A stretch of DNA of 64,000 bases from Deltaproteobacteria bacterium. Lineage in GTDB: Bacteria; Desulfobacterota; Syntrophobacteria; BM002. Made by a program: the position numbers and the translations under genes. Each line of letters starts with the position of its first letter. Position 1 is the stretch's first letter. The stretch is from contig JARRNM010000013.1 of NCBI GenBank assembly GCA_037384945.1, positions 1,321 to 65,320 of the forward strand. Direction: 5' to 3'. This document shows, piece after piece, positions 15,474 through 63,594 of the stretch. Below the pieces are notes generated by a model, which did no database searches, was not told the origin of the DNA, and was given only the letters and a program-made list of their open reading frames with translations.

Positions 15474-15483
15474 AGGTGGAGTG

Positions 15484-29359: not shown

Positions 29360-29557
29360 CTATGCTATTTTAGCTTCAAGCTCTTCTTCTCGAGCATGGA
29401 GAAATAAAGACTCTGCCGCTGAGTCGCTCTGATCTATTTCCAAAAATCTGCTTCTGAGGGCCGGACATTCCAGGAATAGATTTAAGCGCTTCTCCAGGTC
29501 CCCTTTCCTGTATTCCTCCAAAATACTCTCGCTCCTGGTCATTTCTTTATCCTCCAT
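29360..29557 (-). CDS. Hypothetical small acidic protein (65 aa)
   Basis: ORF immediately downstream of the hydrolase gene. No motif. Confidence 0.3.
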   Translation of the reverse strand: MEDKEMTRSESILEEYRKGDLEKRLNLFLECPALRSRFLEIDQSDSAAESLFLHAREEELEAKIA

Positions 29558-30448
29558 TTACTTTATCTTATCCCCCAAGTAATCCAAGGCGCTATTTACT
29601 ACCGAGCTTTCAGTCAGGATTTTTTTGTGACCCAAACGCTCGGTCGTGTGCAATTCAATGTTTGGAAACCTTTCTGAGATCTCTCTGGAATCATCATATG
29701 GGATAGTGGGGTCATTCTTGTCGTGAACTATCAGAATCTTTGAGTCGATTTTTCTCAATAGATTGATCGGGTTGTCTCGCTGCATATTGTAGCCGAACTC
29801 ATCTTCATACTCTTTTATAAGGATTTCATAGATGGTCCGGGGGATACCGACATGATCGAAAAAACCATACAAGACTTCCTTGAGCCTCAAGGCCGGGGCG
29901 ATGAGAACCACTTCCAGGGGATGATTTTCTTTTTCCATGCTGTTGACCACAGCCGAACCTCCCAGGGAGTGGGCAATTACACCCCGGATATTGTAACCAT
30001 CACGAGACCTTATCAGGGCCCTGATGGTGTCGCTAAACTCGAAGTAACTTGATGTTCTCCCCTGAGACTCTCCATGGCCTGGAGCGTCATAGGTAAGTAC
30101 CGAATATCCTCTTTGTATAAGTGGTTCAATAAAGCGATGTAATTGGATCCCCCTGCCGTTCCATCCGTGAGCCAGGAGAACGCCGGGGCCACTCCCCCAC
30201 TTCCAACACTTTACAGCCTTGTCGCTTATAGAAATCTCAAATCTCTCGCCGTTGTCAAGATACTCTCTTTCCACAGGAGTGATTTTGTAGATAGCGGGGG
30301 TGAAGAGCATCCTCTTGATGATTCCTTTCGAAAGACTGGCTGTATGGTTCCAGAGTAAATTGAAAAAGGTGTGAGTAACTTTTTGTCTCAGCTTGTATAA
30401 ACGAACGTTCGTGCTATTACATCCCAATGCTAAAATTTTAGTAGACAT
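29558..30448 (-). CDS. Alpha/beta-fold hydrolase (esterase/lipase-like)
   Basis: HGWNGRG oxyanion region and the nucleophile elbow AHSLGG. Confidence 0.8.
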   Translation of the reverse strand: MSTKILALGCNSTNVRLYKLRQKVTHTFFNLLWNHTASLSKGIIKRMLFTPAIYKITPVEREYLDNGERFEISISDKAVKCWKWGSGPGVLLAHGWNGRGIQLHRFIEPLIQRGYSVLTYDAPGHGESQGRTSSYFEFSDTIRALIRSRDGYNIRGVIAHSLGGSAVVNSMEKENHPLEVVLIAPALRLKEVLYGFFDHVGIPRTIYEILIKEYEDEFGYNMQRDNPINLLRKIDSKILIVHDKNDPTIPYDDSREISERFPNIELHTTERLGHKKILTESSVVNSALDYLGDKIK

Positions 30449-30510
30449 TGTTTCCCTCCTGAGAGCAGATTGCCAACCATAGTGCAGTAAGCAAAAAACG
30501 ATAACAACTA

Positions 30511-31128
30511 TTATTGATAGTTGGCCACGAGTTGATTCAGAGCTTGTTCTTGACGCTTTTTGGTTTCAGAGTCGTCAAGTAATTTGTCATAAAGGTGAAA
30601 ACCAAGCAAAAGAGAATAAAGGTCAAAGGCAAATTGTTCACAGTCCGCATCCTTCCTGAATGCGCCGACCTTTATTGCCGATTGGGCAATACGGCGAAGG
30701 CAATCGATCCAATCGTTTTGTTGACGCAACAAACATTCCCTCACTCTTCCGGGCCTGTCGCTATAGTCTGCGCTGGCCGAAACAAAGATACATCCACCCG
30801 TCAATTGGGAAGTCCAGTCTATCCAATTATTGACCAACGCTTTTATTCTTGGAATACCGGGCTCGGTGTCCAAGGCCGGAACAATGACACTCTTGGCAAA
30901 AACACGGGCAGCGTACTCCAATATTTCAATCTGCAGGTTCTCCTTAGATTGGAAGTGAGCGAATAATCCACTTTTGGACATGTTCATGGCCTTCGCAAGG
31001 GAGCCAATGCTCACACCTTCGAGGCCCAGTTGACTGGCCATATCGAGCCCGGCTTCCAGGATGGCCATTTTTGTCTCTTTCCCCTTTTGCATGTCCAACA
31101 ATATAGTACGAACGTTCGTTTTTGTCAA
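30511..31128 (-). CDS. TetR/AcrR-family transcriptional regulator
   Basis: N-terminal HTH LEGVSIGSLAKAMNMSKSGLFAHFQSKENL. Confidence 0.8.
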   Translation of the reverse strand: MTKTNVRTILLDMQKGKETKMAILEAGLDMASQLGLEGVSIGSLAKAMNMSKSGLFAHFQSKENLQIEILEYAARVFAKSVIVPALDTEPGIPRIKALVNNWIDWTSQLTGGCIFVSASADYSDRPGRVRECLLRQQNDWIDCLRRIAQSAIKVGAFRKDADCEQFAFDLYSLLLGFHLYDKLLDDSETKKRQEQALNQLVANYQ

Positions 31129-31444
31129 GTTTTTTAAAATCCATGAGTTTCCCCAAAAATCAGTGGATCATTCTTCTAAATTCTGTTTAAGAGCCAGTTT
31201 GCCTTGAGTTTGCAAGTGCAAGTTGCTGCTGAGCAACCGCTCCTCACTCTCTCAGCTTTGCGAGGGCCAGCATGAAGATATGGTGCTCACTAAGTAGGAA
31301 TCCTGCCAATAGATGGAGCGAATCATGCCCGTTGTGGAGTAGCTTCCCCGGGGCCTATATCTCTAAAATATTTTTGGGGAAACTTCTGCATTCAAGTCCC
31401 CCGGGGTAATTTCTATGTGGAGGGTGGAGGGGAAAAAGGAGAGC

Positions 31445-32668
31445 TTATTTACGCTTGAGGAAAGACAGGATGCCCTTTCCCTTGCCTTTGCCGTCCTTAT
31501 CAAACCCTTGTTGAAATTGTTCCACCGTTTGAATGATCGAACTAAGGATTGCCCCTTTGAGGTTGGATTTAACCGGGAACTGCTGCCAAGATGAGGCGGG
31601 ATTGGTCAATGCTTGCAGGATCGCCCCCATTTGCTCCTCATTGAAAATCTCCTTCTGCTTGTGGAGGATGGCAAAAATCCAGGCATTGAAACCATTGAGC
31701 AGCTCTTGATTGCTCGGAGTGGATTTAGGTGAACTCCCGAGGATCAGTTTGAGATTCCTTTTGGCATCGCCCCGGCAATCGTAAACTCGAAGAAACTTCG
31801 AGTACTGGGCGGGCACTTGAGCTTTGGCCTCTTCCAGAAGATTTTGAGCCCGACTGCCCACAGTCTTTTCAGTGATCTCCAGTACATTGAGGAGCACTCG
31901 GTGATATATCTGGATAATAGCAGGGGCCTCACTTTTGTCTTCAGAAGTGACTGCCGCCACACTCATGCCTTGTTCAATTAGACCTGAGGAAATTAAGGAG
32001 TTAATCACCCGGTAGACGCTAAACTCATCGTTGCCGCTATCCTCTATTACCTGTTGCACCGTTCGCTTGCCATTGATAAGAGAAATGATGCGCCACTCAT
32101 TGGCGGTCAAGTTCACAGTGTCGCGCTGTTCCTCCACGGACCTGTTGATCTTGAAAACCATTTGTTTATCTGGAATGTTCTTCTTTAGAATACCCCATTC
32201 ATCCACCCGCCGAGTGCCTTCAAGAATGACCTCCATATGGTTCAGCTCTGTGACAAACTCTTGATCCAGATTGAAATCCTGGTCTACATATTCGAAGTCT
32301 CCTTGTTTCCATAGGAACAAGTCGTAGAGAATATCGCGCACCTGTTGATGAATAAACTTCTTGAGTGTTTCAACCGAGATGAAGCCCTTTTCCACCAAGA
32401 TCTTCCCCAGTTTTTCATTTCTTTGTTTGGCGAGAGCAAGGGCTTTCTGGAGCTCTTCGGCTGAGATAATACCTTTGGTGCGAAGGAGATAACCAAGCCT
32501 TACCTCTTTTTGGGTGCCCACTGCATAAACGATATTGCCATTCTTGATGTAAACCCGCACAAGGCGGTCTTGTTCGGCAATGGTGAGGATACCGGTCTTT
32601 TTATCCTGAGCAAGAAGCTGGAGGATACTGGATAAATATAATGTCCCGATATTACCCTTTAGTGCCAT
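31445..32668 (-). CDS. DUF4388 (PATAN-like) domain protein with a Lys/Gly-rich C-terminal tail
   Basis: N-terminal GNIGTLYLSSILQLLAQDKKTGILTI is the DUF4388 signature. Confidence 0.65.
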   Translation of the reverse strand: MALKGNIGTLYLSSILQLLAQDKKTGILTIAEQDRLVRVYIKNGNIVYAVGTQKEVRLGYLLRTKGIISAEELQKALALAKQRNEKLGKILVEKGFISVETLKKFIHQQVRDILYDLFLWKQGDFEYVDQDFNLDQEFVTELNHMEVILEGTRRVDEWGILKKNIPDKQMVFKINRSVEEQRDTVNLTANEWRIISLINGKRTVQQVIEDSGNDEFSVYRVINSLISSGLIEQGMSVAAVTSEDKSEAPAIIQIYHRVLLNVLEITEKTVGSRAQNLLEEAKAQVPAQYSKFLRVYDCRGDAKRNLKLILGSSPKSTPSNQELLNGFNAWIFAILHKQKEIFNEEQMGAILQALTNPASSWQQFPVKSNLKGAILSSIIQTVEQFQQGFDKDGKGKGKGILSFLKRK

Positions 32669-32776
32669 AAAGAAAAGCCGCCTATTATTTCCTAGTGTTT
32701 TCTTGCAGCTGCGTCGTGCTTCCCGTCAACAAGCAAGTTTGTATAGATCCTTCAAGGTTTTGTCAACTCTTTTGTC

Positions 32777-33745
32777 TCAGCCCTTCCTCTCTCCCCCAGG
32801 AGCAATAAACTCTTTCACCAATCCGGCGATCTCTTCCGTCTCCTCAGGGTGGAACCACCTGATCTCCTGGTCGCCCCTGAACCACGTCAGCTGCCTCTTG
32901 GCATAGCGGCGCGTATCTCTTTTCATTGTCCTTACTGCCTCAGCAATTTTCATTCCGTTTATGAGATGTTGCACCATATGGCGATAACCTAAGGCCTGCA
33001 TACTCTTGAGATTAGGTCCGTAGCCCCGGTCTAAAAGCCCTCTTACCTCGGCAAGAAGCCCCAGTTCCATCATCTCTTCAACTCTTCTGTTGATTCTCTT
33101 ATAGAGTTCGGACCGGGGAAGTTTTAACCCGATCTTCAAGGTAAAGAACGGGTTTTCCTTGAAACCGTGCTCCTTTTGAAGCACGGACAGGGGCTTACCT
33201 GTCAATTCCCATACTTCCAAGGCCCTGATGATTCGAAAAAGGTCATTTGGGTGAACTCTCCCTGCACTGCCGGGATCTATCTGTTTCAGTCGGTTATAAA
33301 GCTCCACTCCGCCGTCTTTTTCCCCTTGTCGACGCAGACGCTCTCTGATGCTCTCGTTGGAGTAATCGGCGGGGAACAGTCCATGGAACAAAGCTTTCAG
33401 GTAAAGCCCGGTTCCACCCGCCACAATGGCAACCTTACCCTCCTCCACCAGACTGTTTATGGCCTCCCGTGCCATCTGGCTGTAAAGGCTTGCATCGAAG
33501 TCCTGGTCGGGATCGACAATATCCAACAGATGGTGAGCCACTTCCGTTCTTTCCGCTGCTGTGGGCTTGGCCGTGCCAATGTCCATATAACGGTAGATCT
33601 GCATGGAGTCCGCATTTACAATCGCACCAATAAAATCCTTGGCCACTTGCAAAGCGAGCCCGGATTTCCCCACGGCAGTGGGACCCATCACTGCAATTAC
33701 CTTGGACCTCTTTGCCTGCATTTGGCCTTGGTTTTTCGCCTCCAT
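32777..33745 (-). CDS. miaA: tRNA dimethylallyltransferase
   Basis: P-loop GPTAVGKS and DSMQIYR motifs. Start placed at the internal Met (MEAKNQGQMQAKRSKVIAVMGPTAVGKS) rather than the 5'-extended ORF that runs into a repeat. Confidence 0.85.
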   Translation of the reverse strand: MEAKNQGQMQAKRSKVIAVMGPTAVGKSGLALQVAKDFIGAIVNADSMQIYRYMDIGTAKPTAAERTEVAHHLLDIVDPDQDFDASLYSQMAREAINSLVEEGKVAIVAGGTGLYLKALFHGLFPADYSNESIRERLRRQGEKDGGVELYNRLKQIDPGSAGRVHPNDLFRIIRALEVWELTGKPLSVLQKEHGFKENPFFTLKIGLKLPRSELYKRINRRVEEMMELGLLAEVRGLLDRGYGPNLKSMQALGYRHMVQHLINGMKIAEAVRTMKRDTRRYAKRQLTWFRGDQEIRWFHPEETEEIAGLVKEFIAPGGERKG

Positions 33746-33764
33746 GGTCGTTGCCCTAAACAGC

Positions 33765-33855
33765 TGGCAGCAGCCAGCTGGCAGATTTATGAATCGATTG
33801 CCATGCCTCTGCCTGCTGCCCGCTGCATGCTGCCAGCTGGTCTCTGGCGCTTTGC
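33765..33855. repeat. Family B low-complexity module (GCTGGCAGCAGCCAGCTGGCAG ... CTGCCTGCTGCCCGCTGCATGCTGCCAGCTGG) in the mutL-miaA spacer
   Basis: CAGCTGGCAG motifs shared with 42680-42715 and 52660-52690. Confidence 0.45.
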
Positions 33856-35634
33856 TCAGGCTCTGCCGAACATCCGTTCTAGTTCCCCCAAAGTTAGCTT
33901 CCACCAGAGTGGTCGGCCATGAGGGCAGGTTGAAGAGAGCTCCAATCCGTCCAATTGGTGCAAGAGCGCCGCCATCTCATGGTTCCCCAGCTTCTGACCC
34001 GCTTTGATGGCCACCCGGCAAGCCATAGATTGAAGCAGTTTCTCCAGGAGAGCTTCGGTCCCCAAGGACCTCGCCCCCTCGCAACCCGAAGCGACAAGCT
34101 CCAAGAGAAGTCTTTGCGGTTCCTGTCTCAAGGCCGCCGCCGGCACTGCCCGTAGCACAAAGGTGTTTATCCCGAAGGGCTCCAACGCAAAGCCCAATCG
34201 TGAAAACAGGGGCAGGGAGTCTTTCAGCCAAGCGCCTTCTTCCCCGGTTACCTCTATGGTTTCAGGAATCATCAGAATCTGACTTGCTAACTCCCCTCCC
34301 ATGGCCTCTCGTCGGAAAATTTCGAAGAACACCCGTTCGTGAGCCGCATGCTGATCTATGAGAATTAGACCATCTTCCGCCTCACAAAGAATGTAGCTGT
34401 GGTGTAGCTGACCAATTAAGCTCAGGTCGCCGAATAAACCCCTTGGTTTCTCTTCCTCCCCCGCTGCCAGATCCTCGTCTACTGGAGACCGAACCGGCAG
34501 GAAGTCCTGTGCTGCATAACCTGCACCTCCAGGCTCGGCTACGCTCATATTTTCCAGCGGTACCTGCCTCCATTCTTTCCGAGACGGAATCCCCGCAGAT
34601 CGCTGCCAACCTTTGGCGGCAAGGGGCCGAGTCCATCGTCGTCTTTCCATGCCGCTCAGAGCGGTACGCACCGCCGTTGTCACCATTTTTGCGACAGCGC
34701 CGGGATCTTGGAAGCGCACTTCCGCCTTGGTCGGATGAACATTGACATCCACCTGCTGGTAAGGCAGATTCAGGAGAAGCACGCCCAGAGGGAATTGTCC
34801 TTTGGGGAGTAAGGTCCTATAAGCTTCTAAAATGGCAATTCTTAAAAGCTGATCTCTAACCGCCCTACCATTCACATAAAGAAAAAGCATACTGCCACTG
34901 GATCTGTGGAGTTCAGGCGGACTGAAATGACCCTCGATCTTCACAGGTCCTTGCTGCTGAGACAGGGATAGCCAGGATCGTGAAAAATCCTTGGAAAAGA
35001 CCTGGGCTAACCGCTGCTGCAGATTTACGGTTCCAGGCCAGTCATGCACCTGGCGATTCCTCAAACGGAGAGAGAAATGCACCTCGGGCCTGCTTAAGGC
35101 CAGTCTGGTCAGTAGATCCGCTACATGGCCAAACTCGGTCTTTTCCCTTTTCAAAAATTTGCGCCGTGCTGGTTGGTTGAAAAAGAGATCGCGCACCCAC
35201 ACTTGTGTGCCCGGCGGACAACCACATTGGCCGACCTTTTTGACAACCCCGCCGGAAACAAAAATCTTAGTGCCTGCTGCGGAAGCCCTCGTTCTGCTGA
35301 TTAGCTCGAACTTCGATACCGCTGCAAGACTCGGCAGGGCTTCGCCGCGAAAACCCAGGGTTTGAATTGCCGCCAAGTCCTCATCCTTTTCGAGCTTGCT
35401 GGTTGCATGCCTCTCAAGGGCCAGAATAACATCATCTTCTTCCATCCCGGAACCATCGTCTACAACTCTAATCGTCCGGCATCCATTTCCTTGAATCTCA
35501 ATGGAAATTCGGCGAGATTCCGCGTCCATGGCATTCTCAACCAGCTCCTTGACTACTGAAGCAGGCCTTTCCACCACCTCGCCAGCCGCAATTTTGTTGG
35601 TCAGCCCTTCTGGCAACACCCTAATCCTGGCCAT
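33856..35634 (-). CDS. mutL: DNA mismatch repair protein MutL
   Basis: GHKL ATPase N-terminus (LTNKIAAGEVVERPASVVKELVENAMDA) and the C-terminal dimerisation domain. Confidence 0.9.
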   Translation of the reverse strand: MARIRVLPEGLTNKIAAGEVVERPASVVKELVENAMDAESRRISIEIQGNGCRTIRVVDDGSGMEEDDVILALERHATSKLEKDEDLAAIQTLGFRGEALPSLAAVSKFELISRTRASAAGTKIFVSGGVVKKVGQCGCPPGTQVWVRDLFFNQPARRKFLKREKTEFGHVADLLTRLALSRPEVHFSLRLRNRQVHDWPGTVNLQQRLAQVFSKDFSRSWLSLSQQQGPVKIEGHFSPPELHRSSGSMLFLYVNGRAVRDQLLRIAILEAYRTLLPKGQFPLGVLLLNLPYQQVDVNVHPTKAEVRFQDPGAVAKMVTTAVRTALSGMERRRWTRPLAAKGWQRSAGIPSRKEWRQVPLENMSVAEPGGAGYAAQDFLPVRSPVDEDLAAGEEEKPRGLFGDLSLIGQLHHSYILCEAEDGLILIDQHAAHERVFFEIFRREAMGGELASQILMIPETIEVTGEEGAWLKDSLPLFSRLGFALEPFGINTFVLRAVPAAALRQEPQRLLLELVASGCEGARSLGTEALLEKLLQSMACRVAIKAGQKLGNHEMAALLHQLDGLELSSTCPHGRPLWWKLTLGELERMFGRA

Positions 35635-35744
35635 AAAATCCTCCTTGGGTCACAATTCCCTTATCCTAATCTTATTTAGTGGAATTTGACAACCGCAACA
35701 AAGCTCAAATTGGAGTGTAGGAGTGGAAGGGTTGCTTATTGCGC

Positions 35745-36160
35745 ATTATGAATTGTGGATTTGATAAGGCATGGGGAGCGGAGGGGGAAGTGAGACGGGC
35801 GAGACGGGGTCAGCGGTCGGAGCTCGGAGGTCAGAGGTCGGAAGTCAGAAGACAGATGGCACTGTGTCAGTTGTCAGTGGTCCGTTATTAAAGAAGCATG
35901 GCGCAGGGCGCAGGGCGTGAGGCAGAGTGCACAAGGCCAAGGGCAAAGGGCAGAGGACAGTAGTTACATTAGGGAATTAGAGAATTGGGAGGGTATTCCT
36001 TGCTTCTCACGGTTTATACTTTACGCGTTGACGAATTGGCTAATTGTCTAATCGACTAATTTTCTAATTGACGGTTTCTACGATTTGGACGATTTCTTCG
36101 ACTTGAACGATTGGAACGTCTTGAACGGTTTGAGCAACGGACTACTGACGACGGACAATG
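35745..36160. repeat. ~400 bp MITE-like composite element: an inverted-orientation homologue of 1175-1575
   Basis: The reverse complement shares GTCGAAGAAATCGTCCAAA(C/T)CGTAGAAACCGT, the GTCCGT-type terminal repeat and the heptamer-tandem modules. Confidence 0.6.
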
Positions 36161-36286
36161 GACAAAGATGCGGTTAGTGGTTGACAGAGCTCTTTAAATA
36201 GGCTATTCATGGACCCGAAATCTGACGAGATAACATCCGGTAACAATTACTATTCTCGGTCAGCTCGAGTCAGACAACCATGATAA

Positions 36287-37801
36287 TTGTCGTGGCTGCC
36301 GAGGGTGCTTCCTTTATATCCTTCTTTGTCCCGCCTATGGGTCGATATGTCAGTTGATCGCCAACTCGACGACATCACAGTTTTGTTGAGTAACTGTTTG
36401 GATGCATACACGGCAGCCGTCTTTATCTGGGACGACCCTAGCAAGCTCCTTACCCTCCGGGCCTTTCACACTCTGAGCAAGCACATTATCTCCAAGCTAC
36501 GATTTCCCCCTGAAGATGGAGGCCTTATAGGCTGGGTAGCCAAAAACAAGCAGCCACTAACCGTCGATCACTTCGACCGTGACTCCAGAATTCTCCCCTA
36601 CTACGGAAGTGACGAGAACATCAAATCTTTCCTGGCTGTCCCGTTGCCTGGTCCTAGAGGCGTTATTTGCGTGGACAGTAAACGGCAGTATGTCTTCACC
36701 AATAAAGACCAAAAACTCCTCTCAGGCTTTGCAACCGTCGCAGCAAACGCCCTCAGTGCTGAGCGCGAAAGTATGCGCCACCTGCGTCAGCGCCAGCTCT
36801 TGACCTTGTGGCGTCGGGCAGATGCACTGCCCGCTGATACGGACGATCCCGCTCCATATCTAACCCGGTTACTGGATTCTGTCTGTCCATATTTGCAAGC
36901 CAACGCTGGCCTGGTTGCCGTCCCAATCAAAGATGGAGAATTCTTGCAACCGGTGGCCGCATCCGGCACCTTGCCAGCAACACTCCTGAAAAATGCTTAT
37001 CCAGTCGATCAGGGAATCATGGGTTGGATCTATCAGAATCGCAAATCCCTCACTATCCCTAAATTTCGCTCCCCTACTCGTATTCCCTTTCTTTTTGGCC
37101 CCCGAGACGGTATCGGCAGTATAGGTGGCCTGATTGGTATGCCCCTTGCCTGGGAAGCAGAAGAGGTTGGCGGCGTTATGGCCTTTATCTGTCGCACCGA
37201 AGCCAAGTGGGGCAAAGAAGAAATTGGTGCGGTTACCTCGGTGGTGAGGAGAGCTTCCCTGGTTTTACAGAACTTTACCCTCAAACGGGAATTAGCCCTG
37301 GTCCGGAATTTGGATCCCATCACCGAAGTCTGCAACACTGAGGCATTTGATCGTGTACTCCAGAAAAGATTACAACGCTGTCGGGAAAAGGGCACTAGCC
37401 TTGCTCTGGGCATAATTGCGATCCGTGAGTTCGAGGCATTAAGCACTCGAGTTGCTTTACCAGCCCTGGCGGCTCTTCGCCAACGGGTTGCCTCAACTCT
37501 GCTCCAGCGACTCAAGCGAGGACAGCTCATGGGATGTCTCGATCAAGCTCGTTTCGCCCTGTTATTTGAAGATGACGAGGAGAAAGAAATTCGTGAGCAA
37601 CTCCTGGCGATTTCCGTTGCTCTGGATCAGGAGGTGCTGGCACCCTTGGGCGACGCCCCCCGCTTGCAAGCGTCGTTCGGTTTTGCCATCTTTCCTCGAG
37701 ATGCGGCCTCTGCAAATGAACTCTGGACTATGGGCTTCAGAGCCCTGACGGATCAAACACCTAGTATGCCGGTTAGCAGGACCAAGATGAGATCTGCTTG
37801 A
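36287..37801 (+). CDS. Tandem GAF-domain protein with a C-terminal degenerate GGDEF-like domain. The start is probably an internal Met near 36341.
   Basis: Two GAF-like segments. The C-terminal domain aligns to GGDEF, but the signature is GCLDQ instead of GG(D/E)EF. Confidence 0.65.
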   Translation: MSWLPRVLPLYPSLSRLWVDMSVDRQLDDITVLLSNCLDAYTAAVFIWDDPSKLLTLRAFHTLSKHIISKLRFPPEDGGLIGWVAKNKQPLTVDHFDRDSRILPYYGSDENIKSFLAVPLPGPRGVICVDSKRQYVFTNKDQKLLSGFATVAANALSAERESMRHLRQRQLLTLWRRADALPADTDDPAPYLTRLLDSVCPYLQANAGLVAVPIKDGEFLQPVAASGTLPATLLKNAYPVDQGIMGWIYQNRKSLTIPKFRSPTRIPFLFGPRDGIGSIGGLIGMPLAWEAEEVGGVMAFICRTEAKWGKEEIGAVTSVVRRASLVLQNFTLKRELALVRNLDPITEVCNTEAFDRVLQKRLQRCREKGTSLALGIIAIREFEALSTRVALPALAALRQRVASTLLQRLKRGQLMGCLDQARFALLFEDDEEKEIREQLLAISVALDQEVLAPLGDAPRLQASFGFAIFPRDAASANELWTMGFRALTDQTPSMPVSRTKMRSA

Positions 37802-39813: not shown

Positions 39814-40754
39814 CGATTGCAGTCCTCCTTTCCAGATATTGAACGAACATGGACAGGGTAAAGGTCAGCATTAGATAAAGAATAGCACAGATGAACCAAA
39901 GTTCGAAAGGCTGCAAGCTGCTGGTGACCACTGAACTGACCTGCCAACGGCGGCAGAATCCGGCGGAAGGCCTGTGGCAGGATAATGTAGCCCATGGATT
40001 GCGGATAGGTCATCCCAAGAGAACGAGCCGCTTCCATCTGCCCCCGGTGAATAGACTGGATGCCGGCTCGAACAATCTCGGCCACATAAGCCCCGGCGAA
40101 CACTGCCAGGGCAGCCACACCGTACCACAGGGCTGAGAGTTGGCCTATGCCCTGTTTGGCCAGCAAGGTATTGAACACGGTCCCCAGGACGAAATACCAG
40201 ATAAAAATCTGCACAAGAAGAGGTGAACCCCTTATGAGTTCGATGTAGGTAATCGCTGTCCACCTGAGGGCAGGATTCTTGGAGATCCTGGCCAGACCGG
40301 CAAAGAGGCCTATTATAATTCCCAGGAACACGGCAATGATACTGACTTTCAGGGTAATCCACAGCCCTATAAGCAGTATGCCAACTTTCCATTTCTGGTA
40401 GACGCCAAGGATGTCACCGGGATAAATGTAGGCCCCCTTGCTCACCTGCAGCGAACGGGCAGGGACTGGATAAACCTCCTCCACATCACCTCCCCGGACG
40501 GCGACCTCCACTTGATCCCCTTTGGGTACCAGAGAGACCACTTTGCCGCCTATCTGCGAGCGGACTTCAATGGTGTCTTTGTAGAAGAAGTACTGGGGTA
40601 TCCGGTACCAGCGCCAGACATAATCCACCTTCTTAGTGGCTATCAAAAGCAAGAGGATGACTGTGGCCATCATCAAGAAAAAGAAAATTATTGAGATGTG
40701 ACGCCAGCCACGGGTTCGTAGATAGTCAGTGAGTGAAAAGCTGCCTGTGGTCAC
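39806..40754 (-). CDS. Polar amino acid ABC transporter permease (HisM/GlnP family) with a long N-terminal extension and an apparent 1-nt frameshift near 39926-39940
   Basis: Frame 0 matches the family up to ...[16 protein letters not shown]. The last TM ([38 protein letters not shown]) is encoded in the +1 frame, which ends at TAG 39806-39808. Confidence 0.7.
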
Positions 40755-42715: not shown

Positions 42716-43589
42716 GCCACAACCGCATATTGTCAATCAATCTTGCCTTGCCGACAAAAACCGCCATAGCCATTAGCGCCTTGGGAGTCACTTCGGCTAT
42801 ATCGGTCATAGTATCCTCGTCAACCACTTGCACATACTGAATTGTACAGTGGGGCTCAGCGCGTATAATTGCCTCGGTCTTGTCTATCAACACCTCCACT
42901 CGACGCTCGCCCCCCTGCACCATTTCGCGGGCAGCGAGGAGAGAGCGGTACAGGGAGAGAGCCGATTGCCTTTCCTCTGTGGAAAGGTAGGTGTTGCGGC
43001 TGCTCATGGCCAGGCCATCGGACTCACGCACAGTGGGGTGAGGGATAATTTCCACTCCCAAATTAAGGTCTTTACTCAGCCTTCTGACCACGACAAATTG
43101 TTGGAAGTCCTTTTCTCCCATGACGGCGATATGGGGGCGAACTGCACAAAACAGCTTGGTGACAATCAGGGTGACACCTGGGAAAAAATCTGGTCGGTAG
43201 AGGCCGCAGAGGTTCTGGGTAAGATCGTCCACCAACACACGCGTTTGAAAGCCGACCGGATACATCTCTTCAACTTCCGGGGCAAAGATGGCGTGCGCCC
43301 CCAATTCAGCGCAGAGATCAACGTCCCGTTTAAAATCGCGGGGATACTGGTCGAGATCTTCACCCGGGCTAAACTGGCTGGGGTTGACAAATATGCTTAC
43401 AACTACCTGGTCCGCCCTGCGCAAGGCCTCTTTCACCAAGGCGAGGTGTCCCTGATGCAGGTACCCCATGGTAGGGACGAAGGCGACGGTTTGGCTTTTG
43501 CGGCAGCATTCATCTCGCCACCTGGCCATCTCAGCAGTGGTTCGCAGTATTTCCATGAGACGGGGCTCCTCGCAGGCGAAGTCAGACAT
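42708..43589 (-). CDS. panC: Pantoate--beta-alanine ligase
   Basis: PTMGYLHQGHLALV (HxGH motif). Confidence 0.9.
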   Translation of the reverse strand: MSDFACEEPRLMEILRTTAEMARWRDECCRKSQTVAFVPTMGYLHQGHLALVKEALRRADQVVVSIFVNPSQFSPGEDLDQYPRDFKRDVDLCAELGAHAIFAPEVEEMYPVGFQTRVLVDDLTQNLCGLYRPDFFPGVTLIVTKLFCAVRPHIAVMGEKDFQQFVVVRRLSKDLNLGVEIIPHPTVRESDGLAMSSRNTYLSTEERQSALSLYRSLLAAREMVQGGERRVEVLIDKTEAIIRAEPHCTIQYVQVVDEDTMTDIAEVTPKALMAMAVFVGKARLIDNMRLWPH

Positions 43590-45053: not shown

Positions 45054-45875
45054 ATGATTATGGTTGGTTCCAAGAAAATAGGACTTATCGGCGGAGGAAA
45101 TATGGGTGAGGCCCTCATCAAAGGGTTATTGCAATCCGGTCATTTTGACACCAGCCAGGTGACCGTAAGTGACATAAGCCGGGATCGACTTAACTATCTC
45201 CAGGACAATTACCAGGTGTCGACTCTCAGCGACAATGGCAAGGTGGCCTGGGCGTCTGAGGTAATCATCCTCGCAGTCAAACCACAGCAGATGGGGGATG
45301 TCCTAAGTGAAATAAATGGACAGGTCGAACACCTGCCCTTAGTAATCTCCATTGCCGCCGGAGTGACCATTGCCGCTATTGAGCAGAGACTGATTAAGGG
45401 TGTACCTGTGGTCAGAGTTATGCCCAATACTCCTGCCCTGGTCTTGACCGGCGCTGCTGCCATCGCCGGGGGATCTCAGGCAACCAGAGATCATCTTGCC
45501 ACCACCAGAGTGCTCTTTGAATCAGTTGGCTTGGTAGTCGAGGTGGACGAAGCCCATATGGATGCGGTCACCGGTTTGAGTGGTAGCGGACCCGCCTATG
45601 TTTACCTGTTCATGGAGGCCCTCACTGATGCCGGTGTTTTTATGGGTCTGTCTCGGCCGGTTGCCCGGGATTTGGCGGTCCAAACCACACTGGGTGCTGC
45701 GAGACTAGCAGCCAATAGTGCCAGCCACCTCGCTGCCCTCAAAGACCAGATTACCTCTCCTGGCGGCACAACCATGCATGGTCTGGCCGTCTTAGAAAGC
45801 GGTGGGATGCGTGGGTTGCTCATGGAAGCCGTGGAGGCAGCAACTAGACGATCCGCTGAACTCGGCAAGAAGTAA
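45054..45875 (+). CDS. proC: Pyrroline-5-carboxylate reductase
   Basis: IGLIGGGNMGEALIKGL Rossmann motif and the P5CR C-terminal domain. Confidence 0.9.
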   Translation: MIMVGSKKIGLIGGGNMGEALIKGLLQSGHFDTSQVTVSDISRDRLNYLQDNYQVSTLSDNGKVAWASEVIILAVKPQQMGDVLSEINGQVEHLPLVISIAAGVTIAAIEQRLIKGVPVVRVMPNTPALVLTGAAAIAGGSQATRDHLATTRVLFESVGLVVEVDEAHMDAVTGLSGSGPAYVYLFMEALTDAGVFMGLSRPVARDLAVQTTLGAARLAANSASHLAALKDQITSPGGTTMHGLAVLESGGMRGLLMEAVEAATRRSAELGKK

Positions 45876-45879: not shown

Positions 45880-46145
45880 GCCGGCAAGCGCTGAGCGCCA
45901 TGCGAACTAGACACTATGCGCCAGAGATAAAAATGCGGAATTCGGAACGCGGAATTCGGAATATTTCTGTAAAGCGTATCCCAATCAGTTTTGTCTTAAT
46001 TTCTGTGATTCCCCGTTCCCCATTCCCCGTTCCGAGTTATAGTGCCTAGTGCTTACTGCCTAGTGCCAAGTTTTCCAAGCTCTATGCTCGCTGCGCCATA
46101 CGGTTTTATGCAACGGACCACTGACGACTGACCACTGACAACCGA
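45880..46145. repeat. Composite intergenic repeat: a family A GCGGAATTCGGAACGCGGAATTCGGAAT / GATTCCCCGTTCCCCATTCCCCGTTCCGAG hairpin plus a family B terminus GCAACGGACCACTGACGACTGACCACTGACAACCGACC
   Basis: Read directly. Confidence 0.5.
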
Positions 46146-46149
46146 CCAC

Positions 46150-46986
46150 CTAGGTCGGTACTATCTCCATACTCATATCAACTGCGCGGGCTGAGTGGGT
46201 TAGAGCTCCAATTGATATCAAATCAACCCCTGTAGCAGCAATCTCTCTGACATTTGCCAGGGTAATTCCACCGGAGGCCTCAAGGGGGATTTTGCCTTTG
46301 GTTCGCCGCACTGCCTCAGCCATGGTTTGTAAGTCCATGTTGTCCAACATTATTACGTGAGCACCTGCAGCAATTGCTTCGGCCAACTGGTCGAGGGTTT
46401 CCACCTCCACTTCCACCCTCAGAGTATGAGCCTTGCTATCCAGTGCCGCCTTAACCGCCATAGCCATCGAGCCCGCTGCCGCAATGTGGGGGTCTTAGAT
46501 TAACACCCCATCCTCAACTCCGAGGCGAAGGTTGTTAACCCCCCCGGCGCGCACTGCAGCCTTTTCCAATAAACGGTATCCCGGGGTGGTCTTACGGGTG
46601 TCCAGAATGTGTGCTCTGGTTCCCCCTATCTTGTCCACAAAAGCCCTAGTGAGCGTGGCGATACCGGAAAGCCTCTGAAAAAAATTGAGGGCCGTCCGTT
46701 CCGCCGTGAGGATGGCTGCCAGATCGCCCGCTACCTCCAAAAGCGTATCCCCCTCATTAGCACGGCTCCCGTCTTTTAGGGGAAGATGAATCTGCAACTC
46801 GCTATTAATAGCCCAGAAAACTTGTCTCGCCACGTCAACGCCTGCAAGCACCAGCGGCTCTTTGGCTGTGATCCGCCCCTTTCCCTGAATCCCTGGCTTC
46901 ACTGTGCAAGAAGTGGTTATATCGCCACTTCCTACGTCCTCCTCCAGGGCTGTGCGAATTAACATTTCCAGGTTTGGAGATAGCAA
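46150..46986 (-). pseudogene. nadC: Nicotinate-nucleotide pyrophosphorylase (NadC) with an in-frame TAA at the conserved catalytic Lys codon
   Basis: Two adjacent same-strand ORFs align end to end with NadC. The junction reads GVLI*DPHIAAAGS where the family has (F/V)LIKDNHI. The stop TAA is at 46495-46497. Confidence 0.7.
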
Positions 46987-46989: not shown

Positions 46990-49644
46990 TCAGCCCTCTT
47001 TGCTGATCTTCGTGAGCCTTTCAAGCTGTTTTTGGAGCTTATTCAATTTGTCAGCCAACCGATCAAATTTCTCTCGCTCCTTTGCCACCACCTCATCGGG
47101 TGCTCGGTCGAGGAATTCCTGGTTGGCCAGTTTTTTCTTGGATCGGGCCAATTCGGGCTCAAGTTTACTGATTTCCTTCTGCAACCGCTGACTCTCCTCT
47201 CTGAAGTCAAGGACACCCTCGAGGGGCACAAACAACTCAAGCTCTCCCACCACCGCGGACGCCGCCACCTTAGGCCGTTTTCCATCCCTCTGCAATTTCA
47301 AACTCGATAGCCTGGCAAGGTCTTCTATGTAATGGCCATAAGCCTGGACAGTACTGGTGAGGCTATCTGGGCCAAAAACCACTGCATCTACCTGGGCTGC
47401 CGGAGCGATATTCATCTCTCCCCGGATATTGCGGATGGCCGTGGTAACCTCCATTACAACTGCCATTTGTTCCTCCGCCTCGCGGTCAATTATGGACTCA
47501 TTCGGCTTGGGAAAATCTGCTACCATAATGCTACCTTGGCTATTGGGCAGATGGTGCCACAACTCCTCAGTAACATATGGCATAAAGGGATGAAGCAGCC
47601 TGAGAACGGAAGAAAGTCCATAAAGGAGCAATTGCTGAGTTTCCTCACGTTCCTTGTCGTTTTCGCCGTAGAGAACCGGCTTGACCATCTCAAGGTACCA
47701 GTCACAGAACTCGTGCCAGGTAAACTGGTAGATTAAGCTGGCAGCATCATTGAAATGATAGGATTCCAGCGCCTCATTGACCTTGGCGAATATTTCCTGA
47801 AGCCGACTAAGCATCCAGCGATCCGCCAACCTTTGCGGCTCGGGCAAGGGTGCCGCGGCCATCACTCCCTCTAGATTCATCAGGGTGAAACGGCTGGCAT
47901 TCCAGATTTTATTGACAAAATGCCGGTAGCCCCCAATCCTTTCTTCTGAAAGTCGTATATCTCTTCCCTGGGCTGCAAAGGCGGCCAGGGTAAAGCGAAA
48001 GGCATCTGTGCCATAGCGGTCCATAATAATCAGTGGATCGATGACATTGCCCTTGGACTTGCTCATTTTCATGCCCTCGGCATCGCGGACCAGGGCGTGG
48101 ATGTATACGTCCCGAAATGGTACGTCTTTCATGAAATGCAAGCCCATCATCATCATCCTTGCCACCCAGAAAAAGAGAATGTCGAAAGCGGTCACCAGCA
48201 CTGAGGTGGGGTAAAAGGTTTCAAGTTCCGGAGTCTTTTCTGGCCACCCCAAGGTGGAAAAGGGCCAAAGGGCTGAACTGAACCAGGTATCCAGTACATC
48301 GCTATCTTGCACCAGGTTGTTGCTATTACAACGACTGCATTCTTGCGGCTCCTCCAGGGCAACAATGACTTCGCCGCAATCCTTACAATACCAGGCAGGA
48401 ATACGATGTCCCCACCAAATCTGTCTTGATATGCACCAGTCTTCGATGTTTTCCAGCCAGTCGAAGTAGTTTTTCTCCCACATTTCAGGAATTATACGGG
48501 TTTTTCCTTCCCGCACCGCTGCCATGGAAGCCTCGGCAATTTGCTTCACCGAGACAAACCATTGCTCGGACAGGGTCGGCTCGATGATTGTTTTGCAGCG
48601 ATAACAGTGTCCCACCCGATGTTGGTAGTCCTCGGTCTTAACAAGAAATCCCTGTTCTCTGAGGTCCGCAACTATCTTCTCACGACATTCATAGCGCCCC
48701 AGGCCCATATAGGGACCAGCCTCCTTGTTCATGACACCCTGATCATCCATTACCTTAATTGGCGGCAGTTCGTGTCTCTGACCGATTTCAAAATCGTGAG
48801 GGTCATGGGCTGGAGTTACTTTGAGGGTGCCGGAGCCGAAATTCATCTCAACATATTCGTCAGCAATCACAGGCAGCTCCCGGTTCAGCAGGGGCAGCAT
48901 TACTGTCTTGCCGACAAACTCCCGGTAGCGTTCATCTTCCGGGTGAACTGCCACGCCGGTATCACCTAGCATGGTCTCTGGCCGGGTGGTAACCACTACC
49001 AAACCACCACTCCCATCCGGAAAAGGGTAGCGGATATGATAAAGTTGGCCGGGTATTTCTTCAGCCTCCACCTCCAGGTTGGCCAGGGCGGTTATACAGC
49101 GAGGACACCAGCTGATAATCCGTTGACCTCGATAAATTAGACCTTCATGGTAGAGGGTGACGAAAACCAAGCGCACCGCCTTGGAAAGGCCTTCGTCCAT
49201 GGTGAAACGCTCTCTACTCCAATCACAGCTGGCTCCCAGCCTCTTGAGTTGGTTGATTATTTTGCCTCCATATAATTCACGCCATTGCCAGACTCTTTCG
49301 ATGAACTTTTCTCTTCCCAAGTCGTGTCTATCCAATCCTTCTTCGGTCAGTCGGCGCTCCACTACATTCTGGGTGGCGATGCCGGCGTGGTCGGTTCCCG
49401 GCATCCAGAGGACGTTGTCTCCTTGCATCCGCCTGTAGCGGCAGAGAATATCCTGGAGTGTGTTATTGAGGGCATGACCCATATGCAAGTCGCCAGTGAC
49501 GTTGGGTGGGGGGATAACAATGGAATAGGCCGAGGCATCACTTGTTTCCTCAGCCCGAAACAGACCCTGTTCCTCCCAAAATCGGTACCACTTTTCCTCC
49601 ACTTCTGCAGGTTCGTATGCTTTGGGTAGCATGAGATTCTTCAT
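46990..49644 (-). CDS. valS: Valine--tRNA ligase
   Basis: HMGHALN (HIGH) and KMSKS motifs. 884 aa with a C-terminal coiled coil. Confidence 0.95.
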   Translation of the reverse strand: MKNLMLPKAYEPAEVEEKWYRFWEEQGLFRAEETSDASAYSIVIPPPNVTGDLHMGHALNNTLQDILCRYRRMQGDNVLWMPGTDHAGIATQNVVERRLTEEGLDRHDLGREKFIERVWQWRELYGGKIINQLKRLGASCDWSRERFTMDEGLSKAVRLVFVTLYHEGLIYRGQRIISWCPRCITALANLEVEAEEIPGQLYHIRYPFPDGSGGLVVVTTRPETMLGDTGVAVHPEDERYREFVGKTVMLPLLNRELPVIADEYVEMNFGSGTLKVTPAHDPHDFEIGQRHELPPIKVMDDQGVMNKEAGPYMGLGRYECREKIVADLREQGFLVKTEDYQHRVGHCYRCKTIIEPTLSEQWFVSVKQIAEASMAAVREGKTRIIPEMWEKNYFDWLENIEDWCISRQIWWGHRIPAWYCKDCGEVIVALEEPQECSRCNSNNLVQDSDVLDTWFSSALWPFSTLGWPEKTPELETFYPTSVLVTAFDILFFWVARMMMMGLHFMKDVPFRDVYIHALVRDAEGMKMSKSKGNVIDPLIIMDRYGTDAFRFTLAAFAAQGRDIRLSEERIGGYRHFVNKIWNASRFTLMNLEGVMAAAPLPEPQRLADRWMLSRLQEIFAKVNEALESYHFNDAASLIYQFTWHEFCDWYLEMVKPVLYGENDKEREETQQLLLYGLSSVLRLLHPFMPYVTEELWHHLPNSQGSIMVADFPKPNESIIDREAEEQMAVVMEVTTAIRNIRGEMNIAPAAQVDAVVFGPDSLTSTVQAYGHYIEDLARLSSLKLQRDGKRPKVAASAVVGELELFVPLEGVLDFREESQRLQKEISKLEPELARSKKKLANQEFLDRAPDEVVAKEREKFDRLADKLNKLQKQLERLTKISKEG

Positions 49645-49848: not shown

Positions 49849-51111
49849 TCACTCCCCTGATTCCAGAGAACTCTTTATCTTTTCAATCTCCTGAGCTAGT
49901 AAGCGTTCAACAATATCAGGCAATCGCTCTTCAACCAGACGGGTCAACACTTCTTCAACCTGACCACTCACCAGGGATGCCAACTCCTCGGCTACATTCG
50001 GGGCGATTTCCTCAGAAATATTCATCTGCTTTTCCTCTTCTGTCTCCCCTTCCAAGTCGGCAACCAACCCTTCGGACTCTTCCTCTACGGCCAGAGCCGA
50101 CGCCGCCGCTACTGTCTCGTCGATAAGGCTGTCCAATTCCCCTTCAAAATCGCTAGCCACGTCTTCAGAACCTTCTTCTCCAGCAGAAGCTGAGGCTTCG
50201 GCTACCTTCTCGTCGAAAGCGCTATCTAATTCCCTGTCAAAATCGGTCACGACTTCAGCTGGAACTTCTTCTTCAATAGCAGGTCTTGTCTCGGAAGTGT
50301 CCCCTTCCTCGCCTACACCTTCAGCCTCCATCTCCAAGTCTGCAAAAATATCTTCGGGCAGCTCTTCCTCCGACACTGGGGCCGCCTCAAAAGCCTCCCC
50401 TTCCTCGCTTACACCTTCAGCCTCCGCCTCCAGATCTGCAAAAAGATCTTCAGGCAGCTCTTCCTCCGACACTGGAGCCGCCTCGGAAGTGTCCCCTTCC
50501 TCGCCTACACCTTCAGCCTCCATCTCCAAGTCTGCAAAAAGATCTCCGCCCGGTTCTCCCTCTGATACTGGGGCCGCCTCAAAAGCCTCCCCTTCCTCGC
50601 TTACACCTTCAGCCTCCGCCTCCAGATCTGCAAAAAGATCTTCGGGCAGCTCTTCCTCCGATACCGGAGCCGCCTCACCAGAAGGACCACTTTCAATTTC
50701 CCCGGGAGAACCAGCGGCCTCCTCTAAGAGCTTAGCAACTTCACTTTCGTGGGAGGCAAAGAGTTCGGCGAGAGCCTCGTCGCTGAAAAGCTCGTCTTCG
50801 GCGATTTCCTCGTCTGCTTCTCCCGCAGCGGCTTCGCTTGTCTCATCCTCATCCCTGAGTGATCCTCCAAGCTCGCTTTCCCTCTCACTCCAAGAATCGC
50901 TCTGGCTATCTCCCTCATCTTCACGAGGTTCCATCATAGAGTCTTGCGAAGGTTCATCCTCCCCAAGCTCCAGTTCCACATCAAAATCTTCCAAGGAAAG
51001 ATCCCTGTCCTCGTTCAATATTTCATCATGGGCAAGGGAATCATCGGATTCCGCACCTTCCCCCTCCAACGGATCAACCAGATCGATGATCTCATCGTCA
51101 AAGTCATCCAA
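49849..51111 (-). CDS. Hyper-acidic tandem-repeat protein (420 aa) with ~30 aa repeats (EELPEDLFADLEAEAEGVSEEGEAFEAAPVS) and a short conserved basic/hydrophobic C-terminus
   Basis: Nucleotide-level tandem repeats at 50290-50690. The opposite-strand Ser-rich ORFs are artefacts. Confidence 0.65.
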   Translation of the reverse strand: MDDFDDEIIDLVDPLEGEGAESDDSLAHDEILNEDRDLSLEDFDVELELGEDEPSQDSMMEPREDEGDSQSDSWSERESELGGSLRDEDETSEAAAGEADEEIAEDELFSDEALAELFASHESEVAKLLEEAAGSPGEIESGPSGEAAPVSEEELPEDLFADLEAEAEGVSEEGEAFEAAPVSEGEPGGDLFADLEMEAEGVGEEGDTSEAAPVSEEELPEDLFADLEAEAEGVSEEGEAFEAAPVSEEELPEDIFADLEMEAEGVGEEGDTSETRPAIEEEVPAEVVTDFDRELDSAFDEKVAEASASAGEEGSEDVASDFEGELDSLIDETVAAASALAVEEESEGLVADLEGETEEEKQMNISEEIAPNVAEELASLVSGQVEEVLTRLVEERLPDIVERLLAQEIEKIKSSLESGE

Positions 51112-52604: not shown

Positions 52605-52745
52605 ATGGGACGGCATGGATCATAGAGCATAGGGCAAAGAGCATGGAGCAAGAGGTTTCAGCTGGAAGCAGGCAACGGGCAGCTGGCAGAAAACAGTGTA
52701 GAGACGACAGACGACAGAGGACAGATGACGGAGGACAGGGGGATG
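52605..52745. repeat. Family B low-complexity module (CATAGAGCATAGGGCAAAGAGCATGGAGCAAGAGG...CAGCTGGCAG...GACGACAGACGACAGAGGACAGATGACGGAGGACAGGGGGATGGGC)
   Basis: Reverse complement of the GTCGTCTGTCGTCTG / CTATGCTCCATGCTCT modules of 1360-1540. Confidence 0.5.
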
Positions 52746-59586: not shown

Positions 59587-59850
59587 CTGGAGTAATGGAA
59601 CCTATGAAATCCCAAACTCCAAGCACCAAATCTTAGGGTTTTAGGTGTCGGGTGTCAGGTGTCAGCCTTTGTGTTTCTCCTCCCTGACACCTGAAACCTG
59701 AACACTGAAACCTTAGTCCTTCTTCTGTGGAATTTTCGGATACTCCACTACTCCAGTACTCCAATAGAGCTTACGATCTTTAACGGCAAAGCCTTCAGTT
59801 TTCACCTGGCTCAGAGGACCAGTTTCTCTTCGATCAAATAAACCCGCCAA
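59587..59850. repeat. ~260 bp composite repeat (family A termini GGAGTAATGGA ... ACTCCACTACTCCA, internal GGTGTCAGG hairpin, 3' conserved tail), upstream copy flanking the GGDEF-EAL gene
   Basis: The termini and the ~80 bp 3' tail (CCAAT.GAGCTTA...GGCAAAGCC.T..AGTTT.ACCTGG..CAGAGGACC.G.TTTCTCT) are shared with 62316-62545 in the same orientation. Confidence 0.6.
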
Positions 59851-62315: not shown

Positions 62316-62545
62316 CCGGAGTAATGGAGTCCAGCGATTTTAAATTTTAGAATGAAGATTTCAGATTTAAGAGCTCAGAACTCACCGGCACGAGATGCAT
62401 GAAGCTTCATTCTGCAATCAACAATCCAAAATCATAAATGATATTTGCTCCACTACTCCAATGTAGCTTATTTAAAGGCAAAGCCCTTGAGTTTGACCTG
62501 GCCCAGAGGACCTGGTTTTCTCTACGGTTAAAGAATAATTCCTCT
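62316..62545. repeat. ~230 bp composite repeat, downstream copy flanking the GGDEF-EAL gene. Same termini and 3' tail as 59587-59850 but a different internal hairpin (GAATGAAG...CTTCATTC).
   Basis: See 59587-59850. Confidence 0.6.
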
Positions 62546-63594
62546 AAACAGTTTTCAAATGCTCCCGAATCATCAGGGCTGCACTGGCCCCCTCACCGGC
62601 AGCACTAGCCACCTGCTTGGTGCTTCTGTCCCGCACATCACCGGCAGCAAAGATACCAGGCACACTGGTCTCCAGTAGATGAGGATCTCGCTTTTCGTAA
62701 CCCTTGGGTCGTTTGCCACTGTGAACCAGATCATGGCCTGTTACGATGAAACCCCATTGATCCAAGATCACACCGCTTCCGGTGAGAAAGCCAGTGTTCG
62801 GCTCCAGACCAATAAAAATAAAGGCTCCATCTATAGGCAGATCCTCTTCCACACCATTTTGATTGTTCGCTATTCTGAGCTTCTTTAACCGGGAGCCCTC
62901 ACCCAGAAATTCTTTTACTTCTGTATGCCAGAGCACATCAATTCTGGGATGGCTCAAAACACTCTCCTGAATGATCTGGGTGGCCTTGAACTGGCCGCTT
63001 CTCACCAGCAAGGTCACCCTTTCGGCAAATTTGGTCAATAAAAGGCTCTCCTCGGTGGCGCTGTTACCACCACCCACCACTGCAACACTCTTTCCTTTAT
63101 AAAAGGGGCCATCGCAGGTGGCACAAAAATGCACACCGGCTCCCATGAATTCGCTTTCACCGGGCACATTCAGTCTTCGGTAGCGGCTTCCCGTGGTAAT
63201 GAGCAGGGCGCGACCGCTATACTCGGAACCGTCTCCGGTTTGCACGCAATGGTAGTTTTCATGACTATGAACGCGATCCACCTCCTGCGCCTGAAGTAAC
63301 TCCACCCCAAAGCGTTCCGCTTGTTGACGCAACCGTTGAGAGAATTCCATACCAGCCACCCCGTCTGGAAAGCCGGGCATATTGTCCAGTTTTTCCGTGC
63401 CTGCAGCCTGTCCTCCGAAGGCAGCCCGTTCTATCACCAGGGTATCGATGAACTCTCGAGCCGTGTAAACGGCTGCAGTCAGACCGGCAGGCCTGTTCCC
63501 CTAGAAACTGCTTGCTTTGCCGGCAATCTGGGCACCAGTAGGCGCCATAAACGGTTATTTCTCCTTTCGCCATATCTCTCATCTCCTTTTGCAT
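62544..63594 (-). pseudogene. trxB: Thioredoxin-disulfide reductase (TrxR, CATC active site) with a disrupted N-terminus. The FAD-binding GxGxxG region is in frame with a TAG (63500-63502). An upstream out-of-frame ATG opens a glutaredoxin/thioredoxin-fold-like leader (ITVYGAYWCPDCRQSKQFLGEQ).
   Basis: The intact ORF 62544..63437 starts at residue ~45 of TrxR. The same frame upstream reads MAPTGAQIAGKASSF*GNRPAGLTAAVYTAREFIDTLVIERAAFGGQ. The frame -1 ORF 63265..63594 begins with the CxxC motif. Confidence 0.6.

Follow-up and report, generated by a model that had tools for sequence, protein, structure and literature searches.

A stop codon at the catalytic lysine of nadC lies within a dense patch of substitutions private to a single contig

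Does a stop codon at the catalytic residue of a biosynthetic enzyme mean that the organism has given up making NAD? The question is raised by nadC, encoding quinolinate phosphoribosyltransferase, in a 64,000-nt stretch of DNA analysed here as a whole (the window). The gene appears there as two adjacent minus-strand ORFs. The initial annotation had taken these for one nadC frame interrupted by a TAA at the conserved catalytic lysine, and had proposed a pseudogene in a host- or partner-dependent organism. The features of the frame are:

46150..46986, minus strand: nadC (quinolinate phosphoribosyltransferase) frame with one in-frame stop, assigned by Pfam, solved structures and sibling synteny
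46495..46986, minus strand: N-terminal nadC ORF, 163 aa, TTG start, covering QRPTase_N and the first third of the QRPTase_C barrel
46495..46497, minus strand: in-frame TAA replacing AAA, the Lys172 equivalent of LIKDNH, placed by translation and by the sibling contigs
46150..46467, minus strand: C-terminal nadC ORF, 105 aa, the rest of the QRPTase_C barrel, with an ATG made by the patch described below (IQK to MAM)

Translated from the minus strand, the frame consists of 163 codons, the TAA, 114 codons and a terminal TAG. The N-terminal piece matches the complete Pfam QRPTase_N domain and QRPTase_C positions 1-55, while the C-terminal piece matches QRPTase_C positions 57-169, so that the pieces abut and the stop takes up a single profile position, 56. 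Once the stop is masked, the joined protein can be aligned over its whole length to solved NadC structures (1x1o, E=1.4e-74; 1qpn, E=3e-49). Likeness to NadC (PF02749 and PF01729; Thermus thermophilus 1X1O, M. tuberculosis 1QPN/1QPR) is therefore full-length and collinear over both domains. The gene order valS-nadC-proC is also that of the sibling contigs introduced below, with valS (46990-49644) 3 nt upstream of nadC and proC (45054-45875) convergent with it. The two ORFs are indeed one nadC frame.

In the alignment to solved NadC structures, the stop coincides with the lysine of L-[IL]-K-[DE]-N-H, a column (window position 164) that holds K in 129 of 130 homologues, which bears out the placement of the TAA at the catalytic lysine. 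In M. tuberculosis NadC, Lys172 is the K in the primer context ALI-K-DNH, the K172A substitution leaves activity undetectable, and His161 lines the substrate pocket (PMC4065032). Window residues were converted to this numbering with an offset of 8, taken from the ALIK172DNH motif in the same paper (PMC4065032). The N-terminal piece keeps the active-site equivalents of Arg105, Arg139, Lys140 and Arg162 (R97, R131, K132 and R154 in the window), and the His175 equivalent is also kept. Unlike NadC, the window frame is broken at the Lys172 equivalent, and across the motif GGGxNHRxGLxDxxLIKDNH the equivalents of His161, Asn174, a Gly, a Leu and a Tyr are replaced. The first of these columns, His161, reads NLR in the window and is H or Q in 130 of 130 homologues; the Asn174 column, DPH in the window, is N in all 130. 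Both domains remain collinear, but the TAA splits the polypeptide and stands in place of the Lys172 codon. Because K172A is inactive in the M. tuberculosis enzyme and five further equivalents (His161, Asn174, Gly, Leu and Tyr) are destroyed, nadC as written in the window is incapable of yielding an active enzyme.

We then asked whether this state is shared by the population. A protein search returned an intact 278-aa NadC (P0001), 96% identical to the window protein and encoded, in valS-nadC-proC order, on the JGI metagenome contigs L001-L003 and L088 from three samples (L088 is the same contig as L001). Identity between these contigs and the window is ~99.97% (0-3 differences per 10 kb), and in nadC the only mismatches are 14 positions common to all four. 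L003 carries one additional SNP, private to that sibling, at 46997. The window nadC ORFs, alternative starts included, had no exact match in a gene-position index or among ~15 billion proteins. A window-specific 50-mer gave 0 matches in metagenome_contigs, a collection that also lacks the sibling contigs. An N-masked 100-nt pattern of both alleles likewise gave 0 matches in genome_contigs and metagenome_contigs, which is uninformative since both are without the sibling contigs.

Beyond the population, nadC is intact, highly conserved and set in the same gene neighbourhood in relatives at 62% to 96% identity, and all 130 relatives examined are intact at the LIKDNH motif, so that the comparison of orthologues recommended with the initial annotation gave no lineage-wide break. 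The nearest named genomes are uncultured Syntrophobacterales/Syntrophobacteria MAGs, at 78% and 68% identity. The group is known for syntrophy, and its nearness is what could suggest that the lineage has lost de novo NAD synthesis through dependence on a host or partner. We consider such a loss highly improbable, since nadC is intact in every other same-population assembly as well as in the relatives at 62% to 96%, and since the window is ordinary housekeeping chromosome (thrS, infC, rplT, pheST, mutL, miaA, valS, proC, panC, mreB, recJ). Given the four intact same-population contigs from three samples, a dependent organism with a nadC pseudogene does not follow from the stop. The window ORFs that were scanned, and the Pfam annotations of sibling-contig genes, include no nadA, nadB or salvage gene.

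The chromosome around nadC has some features of its own. The spacers between genes are packed with short tandem arrays whose units measure 7 nt (some 8-9 nt) and occur in 3-6 copies, the unit differing from array to array (for example 1203-1571, 7916-8004, 15089-15602, 17073-17188, 35815-36133, 45932-46149, 52613-52738 and 59643-59763). TRF finds 41 period-7 arrays in the window versus 0-2 in block-shuffled controls, and the proC-nadC spacer holds four tandem arrays. The arrays recall the direct heptamer repeats known from cyanobacteria and Beggiatoaceae (PMC4679880), although here a shared unit is lacking. Tandem repeats also occur inside genes, at 22443-22704 (60/120 nt) and at 50290-50677 (96/192 nt), the latter varying in copy number among siblings to give 467-aa or 510-aa products. 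Across 21500-26310, the alleles of siblings L090 and L091 are ~92% identical over a 797-aa protein and a TPR/Ser-Thr-kinase gene, and a Usp-like gene (406-439 aa) replaces DUF202; the segment appears to be hypervariable or recombining, in a population that is clonal elsewhere.

Alignment of nadC with the four sibling contigs placed every difference in one short stretch, bordered by a homopolymer:

46460..46538, minus strand: private patch, 79 bp with 14 substitutions and free of indels, window against L001, L002, L003 and L088
46539..46545, minus strand: poly-G run, G7 in the window but G8 in the siblings, the patch beginning at the last base of the G8 run

In coding-strand order, the substitutions run G>T, T>A, A>T, C>G, T>G, T>G and A>T (the stop), then A>C, A>C, T>G, C>G, A>C, A>T and A>T. 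Every one of the 14 is a transversion, an outcome with p=0.0034 even under uniform random substitution. As a reference for natural variation we used the polymorphisms among 16 sibling loci covering 63.1 kb of the window, which comprise 377 transitions and 175 transversions (68% transitions); the patch differs strongly from this ratio (Fisher p=1.5e-7). Codon positions 1, 2 and 3 take 6, 5 and 3 of the changes, and all ten affected codons are non-synonymous (G->V, Y->N, H->L, L->V, Y->E, K->stop, N->P, I->M, Q->A and K->M). Apart from the first residue (L/M, from the TTG start), differences between the window protein and P0001 are confined to 27 consecutive residues. Across the patch the window protein reads GG-VN-N-L-RLG-VE-DGVLI-stop-D-P-HIAAAGS-MAM, where P0001 and essentially all relatives differ from it, and the window residues V150, L153, V157, E158 and P166 occur in none of the 130 homologues. 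The patch looks like unselected, untemplated noise rather than evolved sequence. The nadC lesion is private, dense, made of transversions only, unfiltered by selection and inactivating.

These findings bear on how the stop arose. The initial annotation had attributed it to a single A-to-T change; the codon did go from AAA to TAA, since the near-identical sibling contigs have AAA there, but the change is one of 14 clustered transversions rather than a single event. Likewise, the altered motif had been read correctly as LI-stop-DPH, and its N-to-P replacement and 12 further substitutions belong to the same lesion. An ordinary nonsense pseudogene of a niche-restricted bacterium resembles the window in being a biosynthetic gene with an in-frame stop and otherwise near-identical to functional alleles. 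However, such a pseudogene normally has one starting lesion, whereas the window has 14 clustered transversions that no member of the population shares. A small inversion or a compensated frameshift was rejected as the source of the patch because 65 of the 79 bases stay in register; an alternative description, G8->G7 with one A inserted, works for its first two changes alone. A shuffled segment was rejected because base composition is not preserved. A phasing-type pattern, in which the new base equals a neighbouring base, holds for 7 of the 14 changes by manual count, about chance level. No internal promoter or terminator created by the patch was found.

Could the split gene still work? The stop is in frame, and the patch creates two ATG codons 9 codons downstream of it, giving two ORFs, so that read-through or recoding of the TAA, or a split enzyme assembled from both ORFs, might be imagined. 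Read-through had been offered as an alternative in the initial annotation, and it fails on two counts: TAA is an ordinary terminator that ends 18 of 50 window genes, and the product would still be without six invariant residues, namely the equivalents of Lys172, His161 and Asn174 and three others (Gly, Leu and Tyr). In a split enzyme, the catalytic Lys and the nine residues following it would stay untranslated. No convincing Shine-Dalgarno sequence precedes the new ATG of the C-terminal ORF (GCAGCGGGCTCG ATG). A split at the window's stop position was found in 0 of 130 homologues and in 0 of 20 members of the 90% cluster, so the gene has neither the split relatives nor the ribosome-binding site of an evolved split gene. 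The one split nadC of that cluster (P0128/P0129) is unrelated, breaking ~50 residues earlier with the motif kept. A scan of the window for in-frame stops between long open segments returned only nadC (TAA) and the DUF389 gene (TGA), which falls short of what reassignment of a stop codon would leave. With TAA an ordinary terminator and the downstream ORF lacking a convincing ribosome-binding site, read-through or a working split enzyme is very unlikely, and we regard a still functional nadC as scarcely credible.

The window version of the patch folds in a way that the sibling version does not:

46488..46545, minus strand: potential sense-strand hairpin, window version only, from the predicted fold

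For 121 nt, the minimum free energy is -53.6 kcal/mol in the window and -36.8 kcal/mol in the sibling. In the predicted fold, 11 of the 14 substitutions take part in new base pairs, within the hairpin at 46488-46545 and a second small stem; nine of these pairs are Watson-Crick and two are only G-U, while three changes, the stop included, stay unpaired. When 14 random substitutions were simulated, 12-16 of 3000 sets folded as well (p ~0.005), and with positions fixed 57 of 3000 did so. The patch RNA had no Rfam match. The gain in predicted hairpin stability is unexplained and of moderate significance only, and its meaning is uncertain.

The much stronger hairpin, with its nine new Watson-Crick pairs, would favour a templated patch, whether by gene conversion from a diverged copy, quasi-palindrome template switching or a diversity-generating retroelement (DGR). 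A further point in favour is a 15-nt patch stretch, ATGGCTATGGCGGTT, identical to panC 42759-42773. In nadC this stretch lies at 46453-46467, encodes MAMAV and holds five patch substitutions; the panC copy is on the same strand, 3.7 kb away, with no extension of the match and E ~0.006 within the window. Judged on the sequences, the panC identity is probably chance. Searches of the window by blastn-short, tblastn and repeat finding returned no donor or second copy of the patch beyond this 15-nt identity, and the want of a donor in the window argues against a template. A homologous donor would also bring synonymous, transition-rich differences, of which the patch has none, and it is made unlikely by the different look of imports from related strains in the same contig (39948-40053, below).

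Quasi-palindrome clusters share with the patch substitutions that raise the complementarity of an imperfect inverted repeat. Template switching at such sites predicts contiguous, strictly complementary changes on one arm only. In contrast, the patch changes both arms non-contiguously and without strict complementarity, several changes lie outside the pairing, and internal loops persist. Two of the new pairs are no better than G-U, and at 46529 the new base is T although the complementary arm would call for C. A simple template switch thus fits the patch poorly. DGR variable regions are similar in their dense, indel-free substitutions within a short coding stretch. DGRs change only adenines of the template repeat, however, and DGR mutagenesis was rejected: only 7 of the 14 changed bases were A, and a template repeat was not found. 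The target here is moreover the core of a housekeeping enzyme, and a stop codon was created. Neither the scanned window ORFs nor the Pfam-labelled gene calls of the sibling contigs include a reverse-transcriptase domain. Taken together, we judge a templated origin of any of these kinds decidedly unlikely.

The nadC patch is not the only peculiarity of the contig. Private lesions were defined against the sibling contigs, which cover 63.1 of the 64 kb, and at each deletion every covering sibling has the extra bases. The private deletions are:

366: 173-nt private deletion, ABC_tran_2 gene, frameshift
2434: 27-nt private deletion, transglutaminase-like gene, in frame
28615: 16-nt private deletion, O-methyltransferase, frameshift giving a 188-aa ORF versus 229 aa
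39932: 71-nt private deletion, ABC permease (BPD_transp_1), frameshift
about 51130: 39-nt private deletion, repeat protein, in frame
54690: 24-nt private deletion, unnamed gene, in frame
63493/63494: 212-nt private deletion, glutaredoxin-thioredoxin-reductase (Grx-TrxR) fusion, frameshift

Four of these seven deletions shift the frame, in otherwise intact genes, and the window has no private insertion relative to the siblings. L086, L087 and L089 carry an intact 420-aa Grx-TrxR fusion, which the window breaks into the frames 62544-63437 and 63265-63594, with the FAD-binding N-terminus and half of the Grx domain lost. The junction of this 212-nt deletion has no microhomology, and across all six private-deletion junctions measured microhomology is 0-1 nt. 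The 39-nt deletion, which is outside those six, adjoins a direct repeat of ~7-8 nt.

Private single-base differences occur at 989, 1001, 1017, 2291, 8299, 9350, 18604, 23520, 27804, 51768 and 60414. Outside both patches, the private single substitutions comprise 4 transitions and 7 transversions, including three G:C>C:G. Coding effects were listed for nine private or near-private SNPs, an overlapping list that adds 26832, 30396, 33611 and 58714: five change an amino acid, three are synonymous and one is intergenic. The second patch, at 39948-40053 beside the 71-nt deletion, contains 10 private substitutions, of which 9 are at third codon positions and which divide into 5 transitions and 5 transversions. 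By this pattern they look like a natural import from a related strain, or a contig end from a minor strain. Stripped scaffold gaps were considered as a source of the private deletions; the window contains no N and no lower-case letters.

Not every disrupted gene in the window is private. The DUF389 gene (27124-28131) has two in-frame stops, TGA at 27385 and TAG at 28099, both common to L090-L092, whereas the L004 allele is intact and ~4% divergent. From this distribution among sequences, the DUF389 stops are a genuine pseudogene polymorphism of the population. An independent same-population MAG contig (L093; NCBI GCA_037385085.1, JARRNL010000039.1), compared with window 28616-37642, has a 124-nt deletion of its own that splits an alpha/beta-hydrolase gene (window 29820-29943), again with no microhomology. 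L093 also has a scrambled TetR segment (window 30634-30748). Its end jumps between two copies of TATAAAAGAG, and the 16-nt deletion of the window removes one such copy.

Is the lesion, then, technical or biological? An artefact of sequence construction is the origin we favour, with moderate confidence; its technical rather than biological nature is inferred from the company the stop keeps. In its favour are the privacy of the lesion, its spectrum, the lack of any filter by selection, the want of a donor for the patch in the window, the start at the G8 run and the co-occurring private deletions. The private lesions as a whole are transversion-rich, consist of deletions without insertions, lack microhomology and are unselected, and because they are in these respects unlike natural bacterial mutation and unlike population variation a technical origin is favoured for them. 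The source could be joining or gap filling across low-quality ends of reads, faulty consensus calling or polishing immediately past the poly-G run, or another kind of corruption introduced after sequencing. Of the possibilities raised in the initial annotation, base error comes nearest to this explanation, although what is concerned is a corrupted 79-bp stretch and not one base.

Several observations run the other way. Clusters of assembly or consensus errors, such as arise at contig ends, in gap closure or downstream of homopolymers, resemble the present case in giving a lesion in one assembly, unselected, starting at the G8 run and accompanied by private microhomology-free deletions, but a patch without an indel and with a tendency to form a hairpin is atypical of known error modes. 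De Bruijn assemblies of well-covered genomes rarely hold dense substitution clusters, and the errors of long reads are mostly indels, which the patch lacks. Elsewhere the contig is highly accurate. Real pseudogene alleles also exist in the population, as the DUF389 stops common to three siblings illustrate, and the hairpin gains more stability than in ~99.5% of random substitution sets, a result not expected of random error. Additionally, the microhomology-free 124-nt deletion of L093 means that small deletions might be a true property of the population.

We also weighed a real, private loss-of-function allele, produced by a local burst of mutation in nadC, for example through error-prone repair of clustered damage or of a break. 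It would belong to a sub-lineage of this Syntrophobacterales-like population in which inactivating lesions are building up and for which salvage or partners would have to supply NAD precursors. The clean sequence on both sides of the patch, in a contig otherwise 99.97% identical to its siblings, is consistent with such an allele, as are the four private frame-disrupting deletions (ABC_tran_2, O-methyltransferase, ABC permease and Grx-TrxR fusion) and the shared DUF389 pseudogene, which shows that gene decay occurs in the population. Oxidative or radiation-type damage followed by end-joining repair would give transversions and microhomology-free deletions. Against this stands 18% divergence over 79 bp beside zero change in the surrounding 10 kb; we know of no untemplated bacterial mutation process that gives such local divergence. 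If the ~19 private events per 63 kb were typical of the genome, they would amount to over a thousand events and hundreds of dead genes, and this load would sit in a lineage only ~2e-4 diverged from its intact siblings. Finally, none of the private lesions of the contig was found in the other assemblies, from five JGI samples and one NCBI MAG. A real private allele is less likely than an artefact, with an appreciable probability. More doubtful is the fuller scenario in which, in one sub-lineage of an uncultured, syntroph-like population of Desulfobacterota, the patch and all seven deletions are scars of clustered DNA damage or error-prone break repair, recording fast gene loss that includes nadC and a drift to dependence on NAD precursors from the community.

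Returning to the artefact, it is somewhat probable that the nadC stop is one symptom of a corrupted 79-bp stretch private to this contig; nadC in the population is normal. What the locus shows is commonplace, either a broken gene or an error in the sequence, apart from its strange and unexplained pattern of mutation.

For the biology of the organism, the case serves mainly as a warning: a catalytic codon turned into a stop suggests metabolic dependence, while near-identical assemblies show the stop to be confined to one contig. Since the stop is private to that contig and part of a corrupted stretch, no metabolic conclusion follows for the organism. Artefact or real, the lesion says nothing about the NAD metabolism of the lineage and is not a lineage trait. 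If the patch and the deletions were true, the contig would bear witness to an uncommon process of mutation and to genes decaying fast in an anaerobe that lives freely, and would be of moderate interest for studies of mutation spectra and genome reduction.
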